Assembly (NCBI GenBank): GCA_002269645.1
Contig: NIVC01000137.1
Coordinates: forward strand, 1-64,000
Direction of reading: 5' to 3'
Origin: Macrostomum lignano
Taxonomy: Eukaryota
DNA: 64,000 nt
In this document: positions 1-55,439 of the stretch, piece by piece
Position numbering within the stretch: position 1 is the stretch's first letter
How the letters are laid out: each line of letters begins with the position of its first letter
The notes under the pieces: generated by a model
The model's input: the letters and a program-made list of their open reading frames with translations, nothing else
Told to the model about the DNA's origin: nothing
The model's database searches: none
Program-made: the position numbers and the translations under genes

Positions 1-483
1 TTGAACGATAAGTATACTATGATTTTTAATTTTGTTCTGGACCCATATCATGCTGTGAAATTTTTGGGCGATGGAGAACGCATGAAATCTCTACAAAGTG
101 GTTCAGTGGACGACGCTCTGAAAAAAAATGTTTGGAAGCTTGTGCACCCGTGGACATTTACCATACAATATTTGCCTGGTGAGCCGTCCGGTGCTGGGGA
201 CGACAATAGCAAGCAGTATATGCATTGCTACACTGACATCATCGACTATCAGCCCGTTGGAAGCACATCTGTTCCACTGTTGCGCGTCGTGGATTTGCAG
301 CGGAAGGGACACGAAGTAACGCATGAACATAGTTCCTTGACAAATCCTTACTATGTTGGAGTGAATCGTCAGGGCATCAGCGAGATTTCAATTCGACTGA
401 CTGATCAGCGTGGCAAAGGAATACAATTTCAACCGGGCTCGCATACTGTGGCGGTGCTCCATTTTCGTCCTAGAATTGACTAG
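1..483 (+). CDS. Polinton minor capsid (penton-like) protein, C-terminal part, 5'-partial
   Basis: Motifs YTDIIDYQPVGSTSVPLLRVV, YYVGVNRQGISEISIRLTDQRG and terminal VLHFR match the recalled C-terminal pattern of Polinton minor capsid proteins. Runs off the window edge (TTG at position 1 is not a real start). Confidence 0.8.
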   Translation: MNDKYTMIFNFVLDPYHAVKFLGDGERMKSLQSGSVDDALKKNVWKLVHPWTFTIQYLPGEPSGAGDDNSKQYMHCYTDIIDYQPVGSTSVPLLRVVDLQRKGHEVTHEHSSLTNPYYVGVNRQGISEISIRLTDQRGKGIQFQPGSHTVAVLHFRPRID

Positions 484-540
484 GTGACTAATTTATAAGC
501 AAACTTTGGGGTGTTGAGTATGATTTGACCAATAATTTAA

Positions 541-984
541 ATGCCTTTATTAACAGAAAAAGCTAGGAAGAGCCTCTGCTCGCTTTCTAAGTGTGCCATT
601 TTATTGCAGAGTGCGGCCCGCTTGAAAGATAAGCACCAACGCCGCCAATTTCTGCAAAGCTTGACTCTGACGGAAGTCCGCTGTCTACTTGAACTGTTGC
701 TGAATATTGTCAAGCGGCGCGTGCCGATAAAAGCCTGCGATCAGCGCCGATTGCAAAAACACGCGCATGTGATACGCAAGCTGCTGAACGGTGGAAAGAG
801 TCTAGTTGAAAGGAAGAAAATTATTGTTCAAAACGGAGGCTTCCTTCCTTTCCTGGCGCCCATCATTGCTGGCATCACCTCGGCCTTGCCTGCCATTGGA
901 ACAGCGCTAGGAATTACGTCCGGAATTGCGGGCACAGCAGCTGGAGCAGCAACTCTTGTGCGGAATATTCAAAACAAGAAATGA
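541..984 (+). CDS. Conserved small Polinton protein with adenovirus pX(Mu precursor)-like C-terminus
   Basis: 147 aa. Basic helical N-part (ELLLNIVK..VPI; RKKIIVQNGG) followed by GGFLPFLAPIIAGITSALPAIG, which resembles the adenovirus pX tail GG(F/I)LPxLIPIIAAAIGAxPGI. Confidence 0.75.
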   Translation: MPLLTEKARKSLCSLSKCAILLQSAARLKDKHQRRQFLQSLTLTEVRCLLELLLNIVKRRVPIKACDQRRLQKHAHVIRKLLNGGKSLVERKKIIVQNGGFLPFLAPIIAGITSALPAIGTALGITSGIAGTAAGAATLVRNIQNKK

Positions 985-1730
985 GTCGGCACGACGGGCT
1001 TCAGCGGATGGTTCTACTTCCCGAGGCAACATACAATATGATGTGTGATAAAAAAACTCCCCCTACAAATGAAGCCAATACCTCTCTGCCGGAGCACGAG
1101 GAACCTCGAACTAGCGTTTTGGACGGGCCACGCGAGGCACTAGGCAAAAATCTGGTTGGGATGCGACAACGGTTAGATGAACTTGATGCGGCTGCTGCTT
1201 CTACTCAGCACCCGCCCAATACAAGCGCACACCTGCAGCGCTCACAGTTGGAAAGTCGGCTTCTTCACGCGCGTCGAGATTATTTTCAGCCTTTACCACC
1301 TGCGCCTCCGAGCAAAGTTAAAAAGGAATCTGCTGGAAGCTTCATTACTGTTGAAGAAACAAGCATTCCGAAAGCTTTGAGGGCCCGATATAAACGCCTT
1401 GCAGACAAGGTGTTTGAAGAGAGCGAGGAGGCTGCACTACCATCTGAACTTACTCAAGATGAGGTTAAAAATCTAATGGAATATGTTGTGCGAGACAAGC
1501 CGCTTAAGCGCCACGTAGAGCGGCCACCGAGTGGACTATCAAATTTTATAGAATATCTGCAAAAGAGGAATTTAGATCCCAGCATGATTGGGAAGCATCT
1601 TCGTGGAGATTTGCAAAATGGCGGACCAAATCTTGGAGACAAGGAGGCCGACAGTTCTGCTGAAATGCCACATGGCGAGAGAAAAGGCGTTGATATGGAA
1701 ATGCTTGAAAACTATGAAACTCTAAATTGA
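981..1730 (+). CDS. Conserved Polinton ORF of unknown function (PZ-like)
   Basis: 249 aa. N-terminal RMVLLPE.TY and C-terminal PSGLSNFIEYLQKRNLDPSMIG patterns are recalled from Polinton accessory ORFs. ATGA overlap with the upstream ORF. Confidence 0.6.
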   Translation: MSRHDGLQRMVLLPEATYNMMCDKKTPPTNEANTSLPEHEEPRTSVLDGPREALGKNLVGMRQRLDELDAAAASTQHPPNTSAHLQRSQLESRLLHARRDYFQPLPPAPPSKVKKESAGSFITVEETSIPKALRARYKRLADKVFEESEEAALPSELTQDEVKNLMEYVVRDKPLKRHVERPPSGLSNFIEYLQKRNLDPSMIGKHLRGDLQNGGPNLGDKEADSSAEMPHGERKGVDMEMLENYETLN

Positions 1731-1789
1731 GTATGCAATGCTGGTGGTTTGGTTAATCTATATGCAAACTTGTTTTTATTCGAGATAAA

Positions 1790-1796
1790 TATAAAA
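1790..1796 (+). promoter_or_regulatory. Possible TATA box for the small ORF / integrase
   Basis: TATAAAA in the AT-rich intergenic gap, 25 bp upstream of ATG 1815. Sequence match only. Confidence 0.25.
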
Positions 1797-1814
1797 CATT
1801 TGCGTGTGTATGTT

Positions 1815-2030
1815 ATGGCTTCTTTGGGCCAGCGATTTTTTCGTTTTCTGGTGGAAATCTTTCGCGTTTGCTTCCATGGATCGCTTTGCGGTGAATTGAT
1901 TCAAGATGAAGTAGACAATGTGACAGTAAACCTGCGGACAAATATCAAATGCTGCACTAAGCAGAGCAACACCATTTCGTTCGAGAATGTCGGAGCAGAG
2001 GACGAAACAGCGGTTGCGGGCGCGAACTAG
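1815..2030 (+). CDS. Small Cys-containing hypothetical protein (71 aa) overlapping the integrase start
   Basis: MASLGQRFFRFLVEIFRVCFHGSLC...KCCTKQS. Fills the gap in an otherwise compact gene array; no family recognised. Confidence 0.35.
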   Translation: MASLGQRFFRFLVEIFRVCFHGSLCGELIQDEVDNVTVNLRTNIKCCTKQSNTISFENVGAEDETAVAGAN

Positions 2031-3189
2031 TTTGAACGACGCGGCTGCAAATGAACAAGACGCGTGGAAATTTCTGAGCGAGAATTTTTTTGACTTGGAA
2101 AATCCAACTTCATTTGGAGGGAACAAGGCGGAGCTGGTTCGCGCTGTACGAAAGAAATTCGCAGGACTTACCTTTGCTGCTGCAAAAAAGTTTGTAGACA
2201 AATGGGCGCGGGGAACACGCGAATATAACTTATTTCGCAAGGCGCGCCTGCGATTTCCCACGCCCCGGATTAGCGTGCCTCCAACAGCAAAATTTCAATT
2301 TCAAATTGACCTTGCTGACTTGCAGCAGTACAAGGACATCAATAAAGGTTATCGCTTTGTTCTCGTTTTGATTGATTGTCTAACACGAGTTGTTCGTCTT
2401 CGACCGCTGTACACAAAAAAGCCCACAGAAGTTAGTCAAGTGTTGCGTGCGATTTTCAACACCGGTTTCAAACCAAAGTATTTGCAGGGGGATGCTGGGA
2501 TGGAGTTTTTAGGACGTGCAACACAAACGATGCTGCGTGAAGAGGGAGTTCACTTTTTTGTAAGCCAAAGCACATACAAGGCCGCAATGGCTGAACGAAT
2601 CATTCGAACTCTGAAGGAGCGGTTGTCGCGCTATTTCAGGTCAATTAACTTGCCACAGTGGTATGACATTTTACCAAAGATGGAAAAAAATCTAAACCAA
2701 AGTGCGAACCGTTCATTGTATGGCCTAACGCCACAAGTGGTGCAAGCAGATCCCCATCTGCAGGGAATTCTGTGGGATCAGATGTTTGGTGCAATACCGA
2801 CTTCGCCTCGTTATGTGCCTGGCGATTGGGTTCGAATCGCGCGACGCAGAGGAACGTTTGAAAAGGGTTACTCGACTGTTTGGAGCAATGCTGTCTATCG
2901 AATAGGACGAGTCCGCGAAGGAACCCCGCCCATGTATGTGCTCGAGGATCCAGAAGATGACTTCGAACCGCTCAAGGGATTTTTTAATGAGGCAGAGCTT
3001 CAGCAAGTTGAGGGACCTGACAACGACGTGAATGAAATAGAGAAAGTTCTTCGAGTGGAGAAGCTGCCGGGCGGGAATCGACGCTATTTTGTAAAATGGA
3101 GAAATCTACCAGAATATCGGGCGCAGTGGCTGAAGAAACAAGAGCTGGACGAAGAGACCCAGAAACTGTTCAAACGTGTCTATAAGTAA
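1987..3189 (+). CDS. Retroviral-like (rve, DDE) integrase with C-terminal chromodomain
   Basis: QIDLAD...LIDCLTR...LQGDAGMEF...AAMAERIIRTLKE integrase core; C-terminal IEKVLR...RRYFVKWRNLP...QW chromodomain; 400 aa, uninterrupted. Confidence 0.95.
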   Translation: MSEQRTKQRLRARTSLNDAAANEQDAWKFLSENFFDLENPTSFGGNKAELVRAVRKKFAGLTFAAAKKFVDKWARGTREYNLFRKARLRFPTPRISVPPTAKFQFQIDLADLQQYKDINKGYRFVLVLIDCLTRVVRLRPLYTKKPTEVSQVLRAIFNTGFKPKYLQGDAGMEFLGRATQTMLREEGVHFFVSQSTYKAAMAERIIRTLKERLSRYFRSINLPQWYDILPKMEKNLNQSANRSLYGLTPQVVQADPHLQGILWDQMFGAIPTSPRYVPGDWVRIARRRGTFEKGYSTVWSNAVYRIGRVREGTPPMYVLEDPEDDFEPLKGFFNEAELQQVEGPDNDVNEIEKVLRVEKLPGGNRRYFVKWRNLPEYRAQWLKKQELDEETQKLFKRVYK

Positions 3190-3210
3190 ATGTAAGCATG
3201 AACTTGCTAA

Positions 3211-3725
3211 ATGTATGCCTGTATTCAAATGGATCCCGTGTTTCGTTTCTACGCGGGCCCGAACCATGAACAGGTGGGTGGACGCGGAAGTTCCTCTTCG
3301 CGCTCAATTCCCGTATACGAGGGCTACGGATTCTTGTCAAGCCTTGCGAATCGTTTGTTTTACCCTGTTCTGCGCAATACTGGCAAAGATCTGCTGCGAC
3401 GAGGATTGACCTACCTTGCATATAGCGATGAAGAATCCCGAAGGCAAAGAAGAGAGGAGGGGGATTCGACTATGGAGTAATTGGGAACGAACCGGCTGCC
3501 TCTCCCCCAAAGAGAAGGAAACATGGGCGTTCGCGTACCAACAAGATGCCAGCTACTATAAGCAAGGCGGGGCGCGGACGAGGAAAACTATCAAGGACAA
3601 GCAAGCAGAAGGGTCGTGGTGTGCAATCAAGAACCGGCAGGAAAAAGCTTCGTGGCAAGCGGCACAAGAAACGAGGCAAAGCAAGCGCTTCAAAGAGTCT
3701 GTTTAGTCTGTTTAATAAAGAATGA
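3211..3725 (+). pseudogene. Polinton core/DNA-condensing-like protein, split by one frameshift near 3447-3453
   Basis: Frame A (3211-3480) gives QVGG and the amphipathic GYGFLSSLANRLFYPVLR. A shifted frame from 3453 is open to TGA 3725 and reads RGGGFDYG...PPKRRKHGRSRT...GRKKLRGKRHKKRGK, ending in an ATGA overlap with the major capsid start. Confidence 0.6.
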
Positions 3726-5047
3726 ACCAGCTGCTGGGACCGGATGTTGTCGCACTGAAGAGTGAATTGTCTCTTTTTGACCCCTCTCCGGTCCAGTTTA
3801 GTGTTTTGGAGAGTCAGTTTACGAACATTCAGCCGCAGCATGGCCTCGCTGCTGGTGCTCCAATTGAATTCGAAATTCCTCCGGCTGGGGATTTGTATCT
3901 CGACTTGCATGAGACTGCGCTCAATGTGAGTTTTCGAGTGGTGGATTCGGAAAACAAAAGCATCGATGCTGCAAAAAACTTTGTGTGTCTGAACAACCTG
4001 CCGATTGCCTCGCTGTTTCAAGATGCGCAGCTTAGCATTGGAGACAGCGTTATCGAGGGCGGAAGCTTTCTCTATCCATACAAGAGTATGCTGCTGACGC
4101 TGCTTGAGTATGGAAGCATCGCTCAGAAGGCTGCATTGGTGCCCTGGGGATTTTACAAGGATACTGCGGGAGAAATGGATTCTGCTACGGATGCAAATGT
4201 CGGACGCAAATCGCGCGTGGCGTTGATTGCTGGAGGGAGAACTTGCAGTCTCTCAGGACCGTTGTTCCTTGATTTGTTCCGTCAGCCACGTTTCTTGCTG
4301 TCAAAGACAAACTTGCGACTGAAGTTGATTCCCTCCGATCCGAAGTTTGTGCTCAGTGGAGCCGGCGTCGGTGCAGAACCGCTGAAGGACTATTTGGTGG
4401 TTATTGAGCGTGCAGAGCTGCGAGTTCATTATGTGCTGCCATCGCCTAGTGTTCTGGCTGCCCATGCACAGGGACTCAAGAAGCATAATGCGCTTTACCC
4501 GCTGAACAGCCTGCAAATGAGCACCTTCACAATTCCGCAAGGAACCTCCAGCTACACGCGCGAGAATATGTTCCAGGGAGGCGTGCCGAAACTGCTGCTG
4601 GTCGCTTTTGTGACCAACAAAGCTTTCAACGGTAGCATGGATACGAATCCGTTCAACTTTCGACATGCAAACGCTTCATGCATTGCTGTGTTTGTGAACG
4701 GAGAGTCAGTTCCTTCGCGCCCCCTGCAAGTAAATCTGGCGAAGGAGAATGGTGAGGTGGAGTACAATTGGTTGCTACAGCAACTGGGCCTGTATATGCA
4801 GAGCAGAGAAATTGGCTTTAGAATGGACGAGTATGCTCGAGGATATGGCATCTTTGCGTTCAATCTCTGCAGTGAGCTGGGAGTGGGTGTTGGAACACAG
4901 CTATACAAAGAGGGCAGCGTGCGCTTGGAACTGCGGTTTAGCACCGCTACTGCAAGTGTCTACAATGTAATTGTTGGAGGGCTCTTTGATAAGCAATTGC
5001 AGCTGACGGAGTTTCGTGACGTTGTGCCTGGCACCGCCTGGAAATGA
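3722..5047 (+). CDS. Polinton major capsid protein (double jelly-roll, hexon-like)
   Basis: 441 aa, intact. ELSLFDPSPVQ, PIEFEI..YLDL, NNLPIASLFQ, YPYKSML..LL.YG, GFYKD, DLFRQPRFL and VRLELRF motifs are typical of Polinton PY/MCP. Confidence 0.9.
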   Translation: MNQLLGPDVVALKSELSLFDPSPVQFSVLESQFTNIQPQHGLAAGAPIEFEIPPAGDLYLDLHETALNVSFRVVDSENKSIDAAKNFVCLNNLPIASLFQDAQLSIGDSVIEGGSFLYPYKSMLLTLLEYGSIAQKAALVPWGFYKDTAGEMDSATDANVGRKSRVALIAGGRTCSLSGPLFLDLFRQPRFLLSKTNLRLKLIPSDPKFVLSGAGVGAEPLKDYLVVIERAELRVHYVLPSPSVLAAHAQGLKKHNALYPLNSLQMSTFTIPQGTSSYTRENMFQGGVPKLLLVAFVTNKAFNGSMDTNPFNFRHANASCIAVFVNGESVPSRPLQVNLAKENGEVEYNWLLQQLGLYMQSREIGFRMDEYARGYGIFAFNLCSELGVGVGTQLYKEGSVRLELRFSTATASVYNVIVGGLFDKQLQLTEFRDVVPGTAWK

Positions 5048-5601
5048 AAAGCGGCGTCCAGAGCGGATTGACAAACATTTATCTGGCCGCAGTATCCCGC
5101 AAACTGCAACGCATCTACCGGCACGCCGCGTTTTTGGGAGTATACTCTAGCAACTCTCTGCCTTTACTGCCCGCAAGAAACGGTGGCTTGCTTGACACTC
5201 AAAGTTATTTTTTAATTGCAAACACAGACACTAGTAACCTACCTGGCCGGCATTGGATTGCTATTTGGGTTGGACCTGGTCCGATTGGGGCCGCGGGGCG
5301 ACGAGGAGAATTTTTTGACCCACTAGGACTGCAACCAATGCCTGAATTTTCGCAGTGGCTGAGCCGCGAGTGTGGAGGCACTTGGAGTTTTACTCGCTTT
5401 TCTGTTCAGCATCCCTCCACGGGACATTGTGGCGTGTGGGTTTTGTTTTATCTGTATTTTAAACTTGCTACTAGAGAACCTCTGATACATTTTATCAACT
5501 TTGTTTTGCGCGGATATCGCCGTAGTTCTGTTTCGTTCCGCGCTGCTTTTCATGCTCTACGCAGTTTTCAGCTGAAAATTCTTAATCCCCTAAAGTGGTA
5601 A
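5044..5601 (+). CDS. Adenain-like cysteine protease (virion maturation protease)
   Basis: FLGVY, IANTD...PGRHWIAIW (catalytic His), EFFDPLG (Asp), VQHPSTGHCG (oxyanion Gln, catalytic Cys); 185 aa, intact. Confidence 0.9.
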   Translation: MKSGVQSGLTNIYLAAVSRKLQRIYRHAAFLGVYSSNSLPLLPARNGGLLDTQSYFLIANTDTSNLPGRHWIAIWVGPGPIGAAGRRGEFFDPLGLQPMPEFSQWLSRECGGTWSFTRFSVQHPSTGHCGVWVLFYLYFKLATREPLIHFINFVLRGYRRSSVSFRAAFHALRSFQLKILNPLKW

Positions 5602-5708
5602 TCTCTGACGTATCAGTTTTTTAACTCCTTGGATTATTGCCTGCTTTAAAACGCTTTTGCACGCTGTTATTTCAGTCTGTCTCGCGTTACTTGTTTATGC
5701 GGTGGCGA

Positions 5709-5714
5709 AATAAA
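5709..5714 (+). terminator. Candidate polyadenylation signal for the MCP/protease transcript
   Basis: AATAAA ~108 bp after the protease stop. Sequence match only. Confidence 0.3.
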
Positions 5715-6120
5715 ATATCGTTTATGAAAAAATCTTTGCCGTTGTTGGTCTGATTTAAAAACCTCTCCGGTCGACGCACCATGGAAAAACGGGCGGGTAA
5801 TTAGAACAGAAAATTAGTCTGGCATCGAGAAAAAAGGCAGTGGCACTTTGGCCGACGGACGGAGGAAAAAGCAAAAATCTGCTTTTGCACGGACCTAGCT
5901 ACGATCATTTGCACCACTCTGGCGGCAAGGGAAAGAAAAACTGGAGGTCTGCGCTGCATGGAAGAGAGGAAAATTGCGCCCCAGTTGCTATCGGGAGAGG
6001 GATGAAAATTTAGCCGAAGTTTCGGCTATCTCCCATGTATTTCGCCCATGTACCAACCATACATTTTTCGTATTTAAAAAAACCCTCCGTGTCCGATTTT
6101 TATCTACTACTTATAACATC

Positions 6121-11993: not shown

Positions 11994-12095
11994 TTGGCTG
12001 CGCCACGAATTGAAGATCCAACTCTTGCAATTATGGACCTCGGCGTGCGATCAGATATGATTGGAGGCAGATGACGTCCTGCTCAAGCACGGTCT
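11994..12095 (+). repeat. Left copy of exact 102-bp direct repeat (putative long TSD)
   Basis: Identical to 14297-14398 by eye; the sequence belongs to the interrupted transposase. Confidence 0.95.
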
Positions 12096-14296
12096 CCCCT
12101 AATCAGCACGCCTTTCGTCCTGGACGTTCCATCGAAAGTGCGCTGCACGCCATTGTCGACAAGCTGGAGCGCGCCGTGCTTGGCAGTGGATACGCGCTGT
12201 CGCTTTTCCTCGACAATGATGGTCCTTTCAACAATGTGCTCTTTGAAGCCTTTAAGCGAGCCCTGGAATCCCGGGGCACGCACGAGCACCTCACCCGCTG
12301 GATCATGTACATGGTCTCCCATCGTACTGCCACCTCGCACCTCCTGGGACACTCACGCTCCGTGGAAGTCCAGAAGGGCGGACCGCAAGGTGGAGTCCTC
12401 AGCCCGATCCTCTGGAACTTAGTCATGGACGAGCTGCTTTGCAGCCCGCATCCGGACCCTGTTCAGAAGGTCGGTTATGCGGACGATGTTACCGCCACTG
12501 TGGCTGGACCATCGCCCGCGGTCCTCAGGGACCTCCTTCAAGCCTTCATTCACCGTGCCGAGCGCTGGGCACATAGCTGCGGCCTCAGGTTCTCTGAGTC
12601 TAAAACCGTGGCTATCATGTTCACCAGCCGCCGAAACTGGAGGATCGAACCGCTCTCCCTCTATGGCAAACCTGTTGCCATGGAGAAACAAACTAGATGT
12701 CTGGGCGTCACCCTCGACCACAGGTTGAGCTGGACCCCGCACGTCCAAACGAAAGCCCGCAAAGCTCTCGCGACTCTCGCGCAGATCCGCAGAGCTTTCG
12801 GTGCTACCTGGGGCCTCACCCCCGCCGCCTCTGGTGGATTTACACTGCCATTGTTAGACCGGCCATCTCCTTCGCCGGCTTCATTTGGAACAGTGCCCTA
12901 GAGGTGAAAGGGGTTCTTGTGGTTTTAAATAGGGTGCAAGGCCGCGCTTGTCGAGCTATCATGAGCGCGGCTCCCTCTACGCCCTTCGCTGGCATGAACT
13001 CCTTCTTGGACATTCCCCCCCTCGACCTCTTTGTTAGAGGGAAGGTTATGAAAACCACCCGTCGTCTGCTTGACGCGGGTGTCCAAATCCAGAAGCAGTT
13101 TGCCTTCAGAAAGCGGAACCTCCGGCCGCATGGCGACCTCAGCCTGCGAGACCTGGAAGCAGCGAGAGGCCTGCTGACCCTCTCGGACGGAATCCCGTCC
13201 ACGCTCTGCCCCCCGCTCAAATTCAAAACCAGCATTCCACCACGCCATGAAGCGAGAGACAACTGGAAACCCCATGAAATCCACTGCTTCACTGACGGGT
13301 CCCAAATCAACTCCGCCTCTGGATACGGCTACTGCATCGTGTCTGGAGGGAGAACTGTGGCGACCTTCTCCCAACACGCCGGCACCTGCTCCACCGTATT
13401 CCAGAACGAAGTTGTCGCCATCAGCTCCTGCGCCATGGAGCTGTACAATCAGCGCGTCTGGGGGAAGGAAATTACCCTCCACTCGGACAGTCAAGCGGCG
13501 ATTCACGCCCTTGAGCGCACCACCACCTGCTCGCGTACAGTCCTTGACTGCATCGGGCAGCTCAACCGCTTAGGCGCCTCCAACAAGGTGTCCCTTAAGG
13601 TGGATCCCCGGGCATTCGGGCCACCCCGGCAACGAGCTGGCCGATCGCCTGGCCAAGGCTGGCTCGACCGGTTCTTTCACTGGTCCCCTGCCCGTGGCCC
13701 CCAACCCTATCGCCGTTGTCACCACTCGGATCAACCAGTGGGTGGCTTCTAAGCACAGGGAGAGGTGGGCTAACGCCCCCGACTGCCGGCAATCCCGCGC
13801 GGCTGTCCCCTGTCCCTCCTCCGCCCTACGCAGGGCCCTGCTTGGACTTAACCGCAGGGACATCAGGGCGGTGACCATGGCCCTCTCGGGTCATGGCTGC
13901 TTTGCCAGGCATCGTTACCTCCAGGAGAAAATCCGCAGTGAGGAATGCCCTTTCTGCCTCTCCGGTGTCGAGAATGCGGAGCTCCTCATCTGTGAATGCC
14001 CCGCCTTTACTCAGGACAGGCTCACCTACCTCGGCCCAAACCCGGACCTCTCCGACGTTTTCAGGCCCGAGAATCTCTGCCAGCTCGTCCGCTACCTAAG
14101 GGCTACTGGGCGAGCGAACATCCACCTCCTGGACTCTCCGGAGGGGGACCGCGCTGCGACGCCGGCACCACCGGAACTCCCTGCGCGACACCGCAGCACT
14201 AGCTGCCCGTGGTCGCCAGGGGTTAGCGAAATGGGCGGCAACGCCTCCTCGCTGTTTCCGGACGCGCGGAGCCCCCTGCAGCTAAGTCAAAGTAAG
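12096..14296 (+). mobile_element. 5'-truncated non-LTR retrotransposon (RT + RNase H + C-terminal Cys motif; I-group, R1/LOA-like), two frameshifts
   Basis: QHAFRPGRS, PQGGVLSPILWN, YADD, LGVTLD (RT); FTDGS, E..AI, SDSQAAI, W(I)PGHSG.PGNELAD (RNase H); LSGHG...CPFC...E....CEC. Frameshifts near 12825 and 13600. Ends in CTAAGTCAAAGTAAG tail. Confidence 0.9.
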
Positions 14297-14398
14297 TTGG
14301 CTGCGCCACGAATTGAAGATCCAACTCTTGCAATTATGGACCTCGGCGTGCGATCAGATATGATTGGAGGCAGATGACGTCCTGCTCAAGCACGGTCT
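14297..14398 (+). repeat. Right copy of exact 102-bp direct repeat (putative long TSD)
   Basis: Begins immediately after the LINE 3' tail; identical to 11994-12095. Confidence 0.95.
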
Positions 14399-28520: not shown

Positions 28521-29012
28521 TGTCTTGGGATGTTTTGTTTTTAAGAGGGAATGTCTGTTGTTTTTATGAAGGCTTTATTTTGCTGTCTATTTGTTGTTTG
28601 TAAAGAACAAGGATTCTATCCAGATGTCCCCCATCGGGGGGCAAAGATTGCTAGTTATATACTATATATATTATATACTATACTATAATATAATAATGTT
28701 TAGCAACTTTAAATAAAAGTGGAAGACCAATTTTATTGTTTATTAAAGTTTATTACAGCTTATTTTGCACTTAATGCATGTATATCTAAATCTTATTTTT
28801 TTAATAATATTTTATAGTTATAGAGAAACATTATGGCCTTAGGCTTAGTGCAATGCAAACATTTCAAAATTTTATGTAGCATCTGTAACTTTGGTTCTCA
28901 CACTATCAAAATTTGACTCTATTTCTTCTATTTAGAGCTTAGATACTTTTTTAGATATTTGCATTTTTCTATTTATTTTCCAATCTACTCTACTTTATGC
29001 AGTGTGTTACAA

Positions 29013-30158
29013 ATGTCAGCAGCTTCTAGACGCCCTGCAACGGTGGGCTTTGGCCCATCTGGCCAAGCTGCTGGCCTATCGACTGTCTCTCAAGGTGCAG
29101 CTCCTCCATTACAGCAGCAGCCGCTGCCCCGGCCTTCAACCCCATCATCGCAGCAGTCTTTCTCCGCTGTTGCTGAGGAATGCGCCGACCATTTTCACCG
29201 CCTGGTCTGCGGCCTCGTAGCCGTGGTCCAGTGCGCCCTGCTCAATTACTACTTAGTAACGGGTCTGAGCGTTGCCTGGCTTTGGTTCCTTGTCGCTGAC
29301 ATAGTCGTGATCGGAGCCTTAGTCTATGGCTTTGTCAACACCTACCTTTACAGGCGGGGCCAGTACACGAGGTTCCTTGAAGCGAAACAGCCCGGCGAAA
29401 TTCCATTTGCCTGGGCCCTGTGGCTGCTGAACCAGGCCTGCGTGGTTGCTCGCCTAATCGTTATATACTACTCGTTTGGTACAACAGTAGGCGCATGGGG
29501 GAATGTCGGCTCAAATCTGCTGCGCACAACCGGAGCACTGAGCTGCGTGACGGGATTCCTATTGATGAAATCCCTGCTGCTGGGACCGCCGTTCATACTG
29601 AAGAATCATTTGTTCATCTTCCGCATCGGAGCGGAAACTGCCATCGATGTGCTGGACGCTGTCGACTTTCTCGACGTGCTGTTAGTGAATAATTCGCGTC
29701 AACGCCTGCCAGCGGGTCTGACTGAGTGCATTCTGACTTTTGCCGCGGCCACACTGCTGGCTCCAGCCTGCCTGATGTCTGTGTACTCGTTCAGCCGGTT
29801 CGGCTACCTGACCACAGTCAAGAGTCGCTTAGTTCGATCGCTGCACCTGCTGTTCTCAGTGCTGCTGTGCAACCTGCCTCTGTTCATTATCCGACTCTAC
29901 CTGTGGTACAGCCTGTCACTGACTCTTGTGTCAGCTTTTGTGGTGAAAAATATTCTGTTCATCTATTTGAACTTCACCGATTTGATGCGCCAGCTTCTGC
30001 CTGAGATGGCTGGCCAGTCGGCTTTGCCTGGAACTGCTGCCGCTGCGGCTGCTTCTGTTGGTGCTTCTATAAGCCAACAACAAGCTGATGTCGGGTCTCT
30101 TGAGCAGCCGCCTGAGAGTCTGTCGGGATCCAGGGCTGGGCTCATTACGTCGCCATAA
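29013..30158 (+). CDS. Multi-pass membrane protein, TMEM121/CECR6-like (381 aa, single coding exon)
   Basis: GC-richer coding island in AT-rich DNA. Several hydrophobic helices; IDVLDAVDFLDVL, NLPLFIIRLYLW and FVVKNILFI motifs recalled from the CECR6/TMEM121 family. ATG 29013 chosen because it follows a splice acceptor (TTTATGCAG, 29002). Family call from memory. Confidence 0.75.
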   Translation: MSAASRRPATVGFGPSGQAAGLSTVSQGAAPPLQQQPLPRPSTPSSQQSFSAVAEECADHFHRLVCGLVAVVQCALLNYYLVTGLSVAWLWFLVADIVVIGALVYGFVNTYLYRRGQYTRFLEAKQPGEIPFAWALWLLNQACVVARLIVIYYSFGTTVGAWGNVGSNLLRTTGALSCVTGFLLMKSLLLGPPFILKNHLFIFRIGAETAIDVLDAVDFLDVLLVNNSRQRLPAGLTECILTFAAATLLAPACLMSVYSFSRFGYLTTVKSRLVRSLHLLFSVLLCNLPLFIIRLYLWYSLSLTLVSAFVVKNILFIYLNFTDLMRQLLPEMAGQSALPGTAAAAAASVGASISQQQADVGSLEQPPESLSGSRAGLITSP

Positions 30159-51145: not shown

Positions 51146-51760
51146 GTTTACTTGTCTGATTGGTTGGATAAATGACTCTTCATAAACACTCGCCACACTG
51201 TTAGCAGCGCACCGACTAAAAAAATGTTACATTCAGGTGATGAAATCACAACATATCTTGACTCATTGCCGTGTCCCCTTACAGCCAATAAGCCTTTTGA
51301 GCTTTTAATCAGTCAATAAAGCAAAAGTGACTGTAAACGAAAGTCATCTCAAATATCGAACAATGAGCCAGGACTCCAACTGCTCGTAAAACTGGCACTT
51401 CCCCATTGTTCAGGTTCGTGAGTGTTAACTGGGGTACAGGTCGTAAACCAGCTGGGCAAAACAGACAACAGTGCCAATGCAAAGCAATCCAGTCTGCTTT
51501 TCTGGGGGAAATTTATTCTAATTGCCAGCAATAAAACACTTTTGAGTACGGGTTGCACTTGCAGGTAATCACTGCTCCAGTAATGGTCTCCCGCCAGCTC
51601 ACATCAACGCGCTCAATTATAACAAAAATAGATTGTAAATTGTGCTTGCTTATATCGGAGATCAAAGTGAGGGAGACACAAAGAGCTGTCATGGTTCTGA
51701 ATTATGTGCGCACGAGCCCCAAGTCACCAGAAACAGATTAACAAAGTCGCCTCAACTTAC

Positions 51761-54389
51761 GCCTATCGGCCATTCCGAACCCGTCCGTCTGCTGGTGAAA
51801 GTTTCGCCTACGCAGCAGGCAGATGGCGAACACCAGGATGACAATGAGGATGGCAGTGGCGATGATCAGCCCGACGATGGCAGCCAGGCTGGAGTCCCGA
51901 TCGCCCAGGCCACCGCCTCTGCCGCTTCCGTCGGGGCCGCGTCCGCTGCCAGCAGCCGAGTTCGCCCGGCCGTCGCTGCCGAATCCGTTGGCGCTGCCGG
52001 AGCCGGCAGTCCCAGCTGCTCCCAGCCGCTTCGGCGTGGTGGCAACGAGCAGCGTAGCGATGCGCGTCTGCGCCGGGCTGCCCCGGTCCGTGGCGCGGAT
52101 GGTGAGCGCGAATCGGTGCTGATAGGCGCCACACTCGAGCGACTTGGCCAGGCTGAGCTCGCCCGTGTCCGGGTTGATGCGGAAATGGTCCTGGCCGCTG
52201 CCTGTCAGGTTGAACGTTAGCCGGCCGTTCTCGCCGCTGTCCGAGTCGTTCGCGATCACCTTGGCAACCACGTCGTCGGGTCCGTAGTCGCAGGACACGT
52301 TGAGGCGGTTGTTGGCCGGGGACGGGAAGTAGAACACCGGCGCGTTGTCGTTCTCGTCCAGCAGGGTCACGTGCACGATAGTGGAGCGGTGCCTCGACGG
52401 CTGCCCGAAGTCGTAGGCGGTCACGTTCAGCTGGATGGAGGGCGTGCGCTCTCGGTCCAGGTTGTTGGACTTGGTGAAAATCTCGCCAGTTGGCCTGATG
52501 GCAAAGTAGGGGTTGTGGCCGACGAAAAACTTGACTTGACCGTTGACATCGGCGTCTCGGTCTGTGGCGTTGACTCGTCCAACCTGACTACTTGGCGGCG
52601 AATTTTCTTTGATCTCCAGCGTGAATGGCGGGTGCCACTCAGGTGCATGATCGTTCACGTCTCGAATTGTCAGGCGAACCTCCGCACTGGCTGAGTGCAC
52701 GCCGTCAGTGACGTGCACGCTGAACCTGTACTGGTCGCATGATTCGCGGTCGAAACGGACAGCCGATCTAAGAACGCCGGTCGATGAACCAAGAGTGGCG
52801 ATGCGCTGGCCCTCATCGTCTAGTGAGTAGACCAGAGTGGGCGACTGGTCGCGATCGACTGCCTCAAACCGATGGATCTGGATACCTGGTTGCTGCTCCT
52901 CGTCGAAGGCTAACTCGAATACCTGCCGATCGAAAGTCGGTGGTGAGTCGTTCTCGTCCAGAATCACTACTGTGATGAGCTGCGATGCGGAGAGTCTCGG
53001 GACACCGTTGTCGTGACACCAGACGGTCTCCTGGACAGTTGGCGTCGCCTCCCAGTCAAATGTGTCATCCGTGATCAGCTTGTAGACTACCTGAGGCTTG
53101 TGGCGCTGCTGCTGTTGCAGTCGGAAACGAATTTTCCCTTCTCCAGGGCTTCCGAGGTTGCACTCAACGTGGCTGTTGTTCCCGGAGTCATCGTCGCGTG
53201 CGACAATGTAGCCAATGGTCTGTCCGGGAGGCTGGTTCTCGCGAATCGACAGCGCGTGCGGCCCACCGCCCGGCTTGACTGGAAGGCCGCGCACGCTGAT
53301 CACCGGAACATTGTCGTTGTAGTCTTGCAGCTCGATGATTATGGTCTGCTCGATCTGCTTTGGCACAACGCCGCGGTCCCTGGCCACCACGGGGATGCGG
53401 TAGACGCTGGTCCGCTCATAGTCCAACACAGCGCCGTGGGCGACTTGCAGTTCGCCAGAGTTAGGGTGCAGGTAGAACATCTGCGCTTCGCGCGACGGCC
53501 TTGGATCGTTGAACAGGTAAATTATTCGGCCATTGGGCCCGGCGTCTTCGTCAGTGGCCTCCAGTTTCACTATTAACTGGCCGCCTTCGGCATTCTCTGT
53601 CAAATTGAAGCGAAAGTTTTTGGTCACCCAGACTGGCGCGTGGTCGTTCTCATCCCGGACTCGAACTGTCAGATTGAGCGATGCACTCTTCGGCGGACTG
53701 CCGCCGTCGAACGCTGTGAGAAGCATGTGGTGCTCGGTTTTGGTCTCCCTGTCCAGCTTCCCTCGCAGCAGCAGCACCACTCGATGGTCCTTCTCGTTCG
53801 GCTCTAGCGGCGCGACGTCAAACAGTCCCGTGTCCTTCGGGTCAAAAGGTGTCAGCTGTAGGCGAGCCACGCCGTACCTCGGCGAGTCCCTGTCCGTGAC
53901 GACCAGCCTCAGGCCAACCCGCGTGTCCAACTCGGCCAGTTCGCTCACCTCCACAATCGGCGAAGTCACTTTGAACTCTGGCGCGTGGTTGTTGCGCTCC
54001 TCGAGGCGCAGTCTGACTGTGCAGAGCCGTATGGAGTCGCCGTAGCTCACCTGCACCATGATAGGCACGACGCAACCGCTCCGGTCGCAAGAGCCCCGAT
54101 GATGTCCAGGCGAGCTGATCAAGGTGTCTCGGTAGATGGACATCCGCGTAGACACCAGGCCGCTCTTGCTGTTCAAGCTCAGCAGGTGGCCGTCCGTTCG
54201 ATCGTTGAGCAGGGCGAATTCCGCCTGGCCGACCGCCAGGCCGAGCTTGTCGCCGAGGTTCACCACCGGCGTGTCGGGCGGCGAGCCCTCCGTCAGGTCG
54301 GCGGAGATGCGCGAGCAGTCGTTTGGAACAGCGCAAACTGCAGCTGCCATGGCGGCAAGGAAGGCCGACATCAGCCCGACTAACTGCAT
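51761..54389 (-). CDS. Protocadherin exon 1 (signal peptide, 7 cadherin repeats, transmembrane helix); delta1-like architecture; spliced product ~1088 aa
   Basis: Six DxND/E-x-x-P linkers (ERNNHAPEF, DENDHAPVW, DYNDNVPVI, DENDSPPTF, DVNDHAPEW, DENDNAPVF), LDRE/DxD calcium motifs and TM AIVGLIIATAILIVILVFAICLL. GTAAGT donor directly after 51761. Confidence 0.95.
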
Positions 54390-55439
54390 TGCTGGTTTTT
54401 GCTCTTCTGAAATGCGAGGTTTTCGAGGCAGTGCGGCTACCGTGTCTCGGAGACTTTATCTAGTGCATATCTGGATATCGATTGCTACTGTCCAGCCCCC
54501 TCAAAAATATATTTTGGTCCTGATTAATGCCCTTGGAGAGAAAATCAAAACTCCCATTCCTAGGGTGAGACTTTGGCACTTGTTGCCCGCATATCGCAGA
54601 TTCCTATATAGTCCGTTTGGCTTGGATCACCACTACGATTATTATTATTGTTATCGTCAAAGAGAAACCCTGCAATTGCAGCCGGCACAGCTCCCGCAGG
54701 TCACAATTATTTCTCCCAAAAGTCGAGTGGCACGAAGGGGGTGGCAGCGTAAGGCCAAGCGGAACTTTTCTCCCGACAGTCCTGAGCCCCTCCCCAATAA
54801 ACCCCCCAATGCCCCATCAGTTCTGGCGGTGCCAAGTGTGCGCACAATATCTAAGACTGCTGCGCGGTAATGGCGCCCGAAGATTCCCATAATCTTCCTT
54901 CCTTCCCCGAAAACTTTCCCAGGCTTAGCATGCGGCGGCCTACACACTGCAGCAGTAATGGACTGGGTGAATCACCGCTGGAGGCCCCAATCAAATTTAT
55001 CCGCTCGTATTTCCTTCTTATTAGGGCGGATTTCCTTACACCTGGCTGCAGTGGCCTTCTTGATGTGGAAAAAATCTTGATTCCGAACTTCGCCCGCTAC
55101 CGCCTCTTCTCCTCCAACCGCCACAGGAGGTTCCCTTGCCGTGGCCTCGTCCAAAAAGGCCTAAAGCATGGAACTTGGAGTGGCAGCACTTCAGGCTAAT
55201 AACTGTGAGGCTGACTGCAGTTCTTCAATGTGCATACTAATTGTAGGCAAGTTTACGTGTATCTTTTACTTAACTTGTTATAACTTCGGTTTTGAAAGCC
55301 TAGGAGCCCCCTAATCGCTTCACAAAAGTTGCGCTCCTCTAAAATCTAAATGGACGGAGGACAGGAGCTCAACATTTGCCACCTCTTGGGCGTGACGTCC
55401 ACTGGCCTGGAGACTGTAGGAGGGACGCCAAGCATTAGA

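Follow-up and report, generated by a model that had tools for sequence, protein, structure and literature searches.

The window analysed here is a 64,000-nucleotide stretch of the Macrostomum lignano genome (positions 1 to 64,000 of the forward strand of contig NIVC01000137.1, assembly GCA_002269645.1), and its positions 1–6111 are the right-hand end of a provirus of the Polinton/adintovirus type. Because the window begins at the contig start (C137), the left part of the element lies outside it; in sister contigs, the full element measures ~17.46 kb and carries AGTAGT at its left end and ACTACT at its right. The terminal inverted repeats (TIRs) are 191 bp long and 95% alike between left and right. 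The right TIR (5921–6111, no strand assigned) terminates in ACTACT, matches the left TIR exactly over its outer 68 nt and differs from it at 10 positions further in. It is followed by the 6-bp target-site duplication TATAAC (6112–6117, + strand), whose partner left junction is found on two sister contigs (G000 C277 and C4619), and the GC-rich element sequence stops near 6.1 kb. Thus, TIRs with AGTAGT-type ends and a 6-bp target duplication, as expected of a Polinton/adintovirus, are present. Left and right TIRs mismatched at 9–11 of 191 positions in every copy compared, always with identical outer 68 nt; since the same range of differences recurs in all of them, the asymmetry is inherited and not age-related.

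The open reading frames (ORFs) of this segment all lie on the + strand and are packed head to tail, and the ORF map bore out the positions that an earlier note, made from the sequence alone, had assigned to the genes it named; overlooked there were two ORFs (981–1730 and 1815–2030) and the right TIR. At the contig start, 1–483 encodes the C-terminal half of a putative minor capsid (penton) protein (mCP), open at the edge and assigned by position and family. The gene is whole in sister copies (329 aa), has 71 homologues, in which motifs at both the N- and the C-terminus are conserved, and sits in the place expected for this family, and its ESM Atlas neighbours include a Preplasmiviricota-rich cluster; searches of PDB and Pfam gave no sequence match for it. 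The next gene (541–984) specifies a 147-aa protein whose C-terminal part resembles adenovirus pX/mu (Pfam Adeno_PX, E 1.7e-5, 25 bits, equal to the cut-off) and which contains a protease-site-like motif, QNGG/F, as read from the sequence; Pfam detected no PLA2 domain on it. The 249-aa ORF at 981–1730, unmatched in Pfam, has positional counterparts in two related families, B and C (the family of the element itself being designated A), as does the 71-aa Cys-rich ORF at 1815–2030, with counterparts of 72–75 aa. A retrovirus-like integrase with a C-terminal chromodomain follows at 1930–3189 (first ATG at 1987; rve, E 2.5e-4; Chromo, E 8.2e-6), with its D, D, and E motifs at about 2302, 2482, and 2584 and an rve score below the curated Pfam cut-off. 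The remaining three genes encode an Arg/Lys-rich putative virion core protein (3229–3725; 171 aa when open, broken here by a one-base indel near 3440), the major capsid protein (MCP; 3722–5047, 441 aa), and an adenain-like cysteine protease (5044–5601) with His, Asp, Gln, and Cys motifs. The protease matched Peptidase_C5 at E 0.032, below cut-off, and the S273R protease of African swine fever virus at E 0.014 with the His/Gln/Cys motifs aligned.

The MCP gave no sequence-level match in PDB or Pfam, and its fold was examined by structure prediction. While the single sequence was folded with a pLDDT of only 32, the model obtained with 65 homologues (66-sequence alignment; 78 homologues were found) reached a pLDDT of 89.3 and a pTM of 0.89. 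A Foldseek comparison of this model with the PDB retrieved the capsid proteins of iridovirus, PBCV-1, Sputnik, and mavirus (best E 6e-16, TM about 0.6), and a viral structure library likewise returned double jelly-roll capsids. Thus, the double jelly-roll that had been anticipated for 3722–5047 was found in the predicted structure. Relatives of the MCP occur in fish, sea cucumber, and a wasp-associated Maverick; the nearest outside the host genome are 84–86% identical (2 contigs), followed by those at ≤48%.

In sister contigs, the region corresponding to the left of the window contains left-arm ORFs, a TBP-like gene, a deoxynucleoside kinase gene (dNK; Pfam, E 1e-16), pPolB, a dUTPase gene (Pfam, E 1e-29), a Lys/Arg-rich ORF, an A32-like ATPase gene, and the minor capsid gene. 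The pPolB frame of 1478 codons shows a partial match to DNA_pol_B_2 (PF03175, E 2.5e-25) together with an Endonuclease VII (Endonuclease_7) domain, and no OTU domain was detected at its N-terminus by Pfam, that is, at the level of sequence profiles. The packaging ATPase carries Walker A and B motifs and matches Pox_A32 at E 0.003, below cut-off. The polymerase and the packaging ATPase, both expected upstream by the earlier note, are therefore encoded by sister copies that share 99.8% identity with the window.

One left-arm ORF encodes a stand-alone protein of ~160–200 aa that falls into TBP clusters of the ESM Atlas (feature score 0.95, with 210 of 256 features; all 30 matches being TBP). Two relatives, 66–70% identical to it, carry PF00352, and a profile built from six sequences matched TBP structures over both repeats (E 5e-7). 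The protein thus has two-repeat TBP core homology, as judged from sequence, although it is very diverged. Orthologues occur in families B and C at 44% identity. This gene and the promoter-like boxes described below were unseen in the earlier note, although three of the boxes lie within the coordinates that it covered.

Copies of the element were sought with the MCP gene; among the 40 of 71 candidates that were scored, 7 matched at about 100%, 2 at 68–69% (family B), and 31 at 65–70% (family C and others). An exact search of the genome for the termini gave 12 ends (7 right and 5 left) with 5 distinct right flanks. Family A thus occupies five insertion sites, four of which are flanked by matching hexamers (TATAAC at the site of the window, CATGTT, GAGGGG, and GGCCAG), the fifth being represented by a right end only. 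The copies differ by 0–8 substitutions per 3.4–9.0 kb and by 0–12 small indels in all 14 stretch comparisons. Because near-identical copies reside at five sites, transposition must have been very recent. A recent endogenous Polinton/adintovirus, as proposed earlier, is accordingly supported by the capsid fold, by pPolB and the ATPase in the sisters, and by copies of 99.8% identity; the further suggestion that it is possibly still active holds only in the sense of recent transposition, indicated by near-identical copies with target duplications.

The frameshift that the earlier note placed at ~3450 is real in this contig and lies at about 3440. It is private to the window copy, in which six substitutions and this indel are seen in none of the other six contigs; the 171-aa core ORF is open in five of these six, and the indel is present in none. 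The intactness of the module was thus confirmed, with its sole lesion confined to this contig, yet as an argument it is ordinary for Polintons. In each of four public runs, from four studies, the region is contained in a single contig that lacks the private alleles of the window, bearing in mind that contigs drop minor variants. None of the public runs listed as containing the element was an RNA data set. The element contigs have ~2–4 times the depth of some flank-specific contigs in all four runs, a depth that is no measure of copy number; the contig depth gives no hint of large episomal amplification.

Several other features of the copies were noted. Two contigs (G000 C4619 and C4948) have left and right flanks from different insertion sites, and are therefore either recombinants or chimeras formed across the repeat. 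A fourth related family (65–68% identical to A and B) has one of the five family-A insertions in its MCP gene, flanked by the duplication GAGGGG (C1704:16311 and C2285:173997). Insertion polymorphism, considered on the basis of empty-site contigs, was rejected, as the insertion target is repetitive and the flank seen here differs from the loose ends.

Pairwise comparison of families A, B, and C shows saturation at synonymous sites (pS 0.73–0.85), whereas the MCP remains 70–81% identical (pN 0.12–0.20); the other identities are 69% for the ATPase, 62% for the integrase, 45–55% for the protease, and 42% for the minor capsid protein. Judged from these substitution patterns, the capsid, ATPase, and protease are under strong, long-term purifying selection. 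The virion module has thus been maintained for a long time, which provides the strongest indirect reason to suppose a particle stage in the lineage.

A second Polinton family in the same genome, designated X, has a PF21738-type capsid and 186 exact termini. The TBP-like gene was not found in the two family-X stretches examined. In one family-A copy, a family-X element has entered immediately ahead of the pPolB start, with a TTTTTT duplication (C3268/C4948/C2158); a recombinant with two capsid modules, considered for C4948 and C2158, was rejected because family X is inserted there with its own ends and this duplication. A 3.8-kb family-X piece also lies within a family-C element (C105:570682-574517), with both ends, capsid-region genes only, and unmatched flanking hexamers. 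In 40 stretches, A/B/C-type genes lie within 1.5 kb of 3 of 60 family-X sites, as compared with a single one of 240 control windows, where the gene is an integrase match of 29%; targeting of Polintons into Polintons was not established (p 0.026 by windows, 0.65 by stretches). Nine stretches, 88.6 kb in total and drawn from families A, B, and C and a portion of X, gave no Rfam match at the gathering score, including none to the group I intron RF00028.

The hexamer TATAAG precedes several virion genes at short distances. In the window, it is found on the + strand at 494–499 (47 nt before the ATG of the pX-like protein and at the same place in families B and C), at 3181–3186 (48 nt before the core-protein ATG, as compared with 51 and 50 nt in B and C), and, inside the core ORF, at 3557–3562, which is 165 nt ahead of the ATG of the MCP gene (158 nt in both B and C). 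A variant, TATATG(CAAAC), occurs at 1759–1764 (+); it lies 56 nt ahead of the 71-aa ORF, and B and C carry TATAAG at presumably equivalent positions. For A, B, and C, respectively, the distances before the minor capsid gene are 49, 43, and 51 nt, those before the pX gene 47, 86, and 55 nt, and those before the protease gene none, 134, and 134 nt. The MCP box is held at synonymous positions in the three families, spelled xxT-ATA-AGC in each although the neighbouring residues differ; the joint chance of this codon choice is 0.017–0.037 per family, calculated from family codon use. In the virion-gene blocks of the three families, from dUTPase to protease (25.6 kb), TATAAG occurs 26 times in sense and once in antisense orientation (2 of the 26 being repeat duplicates), as compared with one sense and no antisense occurrence in the TBP-dNK-pPolB blocks (19.8 kb). 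Other xxTAAG hexamers show no such excess, GATAAG, AATAAG, TGTAAG, and TTTAAG being not clearly enriched. Comparison with shuffled sequences revealed no TATAAG excess in the host DNA of the window or in family X. A 111-bp tandem duplication with TATAAG boxes is located between the dUTPase gene and the Lys/Arg-rich ORF upstream of the ATPase gene (L021:9396-9617).

In Polintons and adenoviruses, pPolB copies the linear, TIR-ended genome by protein priming; an integrase inserts it, an ATPase packages it, and a protease matures the core proteins. Taken together, the observations suggest, with a probability that we put at roughly two in three, that this young 17.5-kb Polinton residing at five sites spreads by protein-primed replication, integration, and packaging, and that its own TBP-like protein activates the particle genes at TATAAG. 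From the arrangement of genes and boxes, we infer a TBP-driven early-to-late switch. TBP, dNK, and pPolB, which have no box, would be expressed early, from other promoters, whereupon the TBP-like protein would bind TATAAG(C/T) and recruit host RNA polymerase II to the dUTPase, ATPase, mCP, pX, core, and MCP genes. Presumably, the ATPase then fills the predicted double jelly-roll capsid, and the protease may cleave the basic core proteins at Gly-Gly sites. A stronger version, for which we see slightly less than an even chance, is that the element is a genuine temperate virus that was mobile recently and whose late switch consists of one protein, a self-encoded TBP reading a private TATAAG box, and that this switch arose independently of that of herpesviruses.

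Several observations weigh against the proposed switch and particle stage. The expression and particle steps are predictions from the genes. The ESM recognition value of the TBP-like protein is 1920, below the 2300 mark of the tool, and Pfam gave no direct match to the ORF. In the window alone the excess of boxes is modest (3 TATAAG against 0.66 expected, a count obtained in 7 of 200 shuffles), and the early and late blocks were drawn after the motif list had been seen. No exact TATAAG lies within 200 nt of the integrase, protease, 249-aa, and 71-aa ORFs of family A; moreover, the dUTPase gene and one left-arm ORF have the box in front of them, so that it does not map cleanly onto the structural genes. 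Lesions occur in several copies, the MCP gene being split in three of seven contigs and pPolB in three of six. Furthermore, host TBP could read TATAAG, because this is near the canonical TATA box.

The last point leads to an alternative that we regard as unlikely, namely that TATAAG is a plain TATA promoter read by host TBP and that the TBP-like protein is a decoy, a host shut-off factor, or a replication factor. Indeed, TATAAG is one base from TATAAA, and the TBP-like protein is very diverged, with its DNA binding only predicted. TATAAA itself, however, is not favoured in the same virion-gene blocks (6 sense and 8 antisense, in contrast to 26 and 1 for TATAAG), the G of TATAAG is kept in three families despite saturated synonymous sites, and family X, in which no TBP was found, lacks a TATAAG excess, although this comparison concerns one partially covered family. 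It is also known that the late promoter motif of baculoviruses and nudiviruses is DTAAG. The box may then be a late promoter of such a helper virus, with the element as a satellite that depends on infection by a large DNA virus to form particles; TATAAG contains ATAAG, and distances of 43–60 nt would fit initiation within the motif. A precedent is offered by polinton-like viruses (PLVs) associated with entomopoxviruses, described in the available text of PMC11296320 as possible hyperparasites. We consider this reading very improbable, as TATAAG alone is enriched among xxTAAG words and the element has its own TBP-like gene; a LEF-8 search for a relic of a helper virus gave no match, but neither did the control of that search.

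On an axis separate from the promoter, the element may now be a purely intracellular transposon whose capsid module is a recent relic or whose copies are silent, a possibility that we judge somewhat unlikely. Consistent with it are the low copy number (five sites) and the damage in several copies. In one of these (G000 C4976), a 1,075-bp insertion with a 4–5-bp duplication interrupts the protease gene at the position equivalent to 5518 of the window; this insertion and an MCP indel are real, since both were also found in the independent run X15. On the other hand, the lesions differ from copy to copy, and the purifying selection on capsid, ATPase, and protease across saturating divergence argues for a needed virion stage. 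An intact virion module alone is ordinary, and young intact Polintons are common in animals. Less ordinary is that the family pairs a gene for a TBP-like protein with a box conserved ahead of its virion genes. With its few and very young copies, its defined promoter box, and a candidate factor to match, the family allows sharp and cheap tests of particle formation and gene timing, and, if the reading is true, the five near-identical sites would provide a clean system for detecting the first natural animal Polinton particles and early and late transcripts.

Beyond the element, the window includes host exons of the TMEM121 family (28917–30155, +; E 3e-20) and of six cadherin repeats (51741–54455, −; E 2e-78), which identify the host as an animal, as well as long simple-repeat arrays at about 19–21 kb and 39.5–49 kb. 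The earlier statement that every neighbouring transposon is decayed held for those spot-checked: a retroelement at 12.0–14.4 kb, with a non-LTR-type reverse transcriptase and RNase H split across frames (12014–14374), and FLYWCH and PNMA-like fragments, which are partial.

Among known systems, beta- and gammaherpesviruses express late genes from TATT promoters by means of a viral TBP mimic and host Pol II. The proposed late switch, with its virus-encoded TBP and variant TATA box, would be analogous, but the herpesvirus TBP is a large multidomain protein acting in a multi-subunit complex of an unrelated realm, whereas that of the element is small and stand-alone, with a predicted function. MELD viruses, likewise linear dsDNA viruses of middle size, provide a parallel for the TBP-like gene, as some of them have TBP genes labelled in the figure legends of 10.1101/697771; in the portions of that source available, TBP is a map label in sections on non-animal viruses or those with other replicases, with no promoter motif tied to it. 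A literature search, outside most subscription papers, found none linking a Polinton TBP to a promoter box, and annotations may be missed by such a search. Particle formation and gene timing of animal Polintons are still argued from gene content and bulk expression, as far as the accessible parts of PMC8502044 and PMC11131425 indicate. In the latter (Stephens et al.), hundreds of coral polintoviruses are reported with expressed capsid genes and particles still inferred. Nested retrotransposons have been described in PLVs (PMC12220804, in part). An HNH-type nuclease domain inside pPolB is shared with the nematode pPolB2 Polintons, for which the consulted sections of Jeong et al. (10.1101/2023.08.22.554363) describe an HNH domain and many full-length copies; unlike those, the present element shows no fusogen. 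The closest likeness in gene content is to adintoviruses, which Starrett et al. 2021 (PMC8502044, in the text available) define by this gene set. Common to these animal Polintons (Mavericks) and the element are pPolB, an rve integrase, an FtsK/A32 ATPase, a double jelly-roll hexon, a penton-like gene, adenain, a pX-bearing protein, TIRs, and integration into the host. The Alpha and Beta classes are distinguished there, according to the same portions, by PolB class and accessory genes (PLA2X versus GasderminX/Cupiennin), and the virion module of the element resembles that of the Beta class, by description only. In contrast to the adintoviruses so described, the element has an Endonuclease VII domain and no Pfam OTU domain in its pPolB and no PLA2 on its pX protein, adds TBP-like, dNK, and dUTPase genes, and has virion genes that share a TATAAG box.

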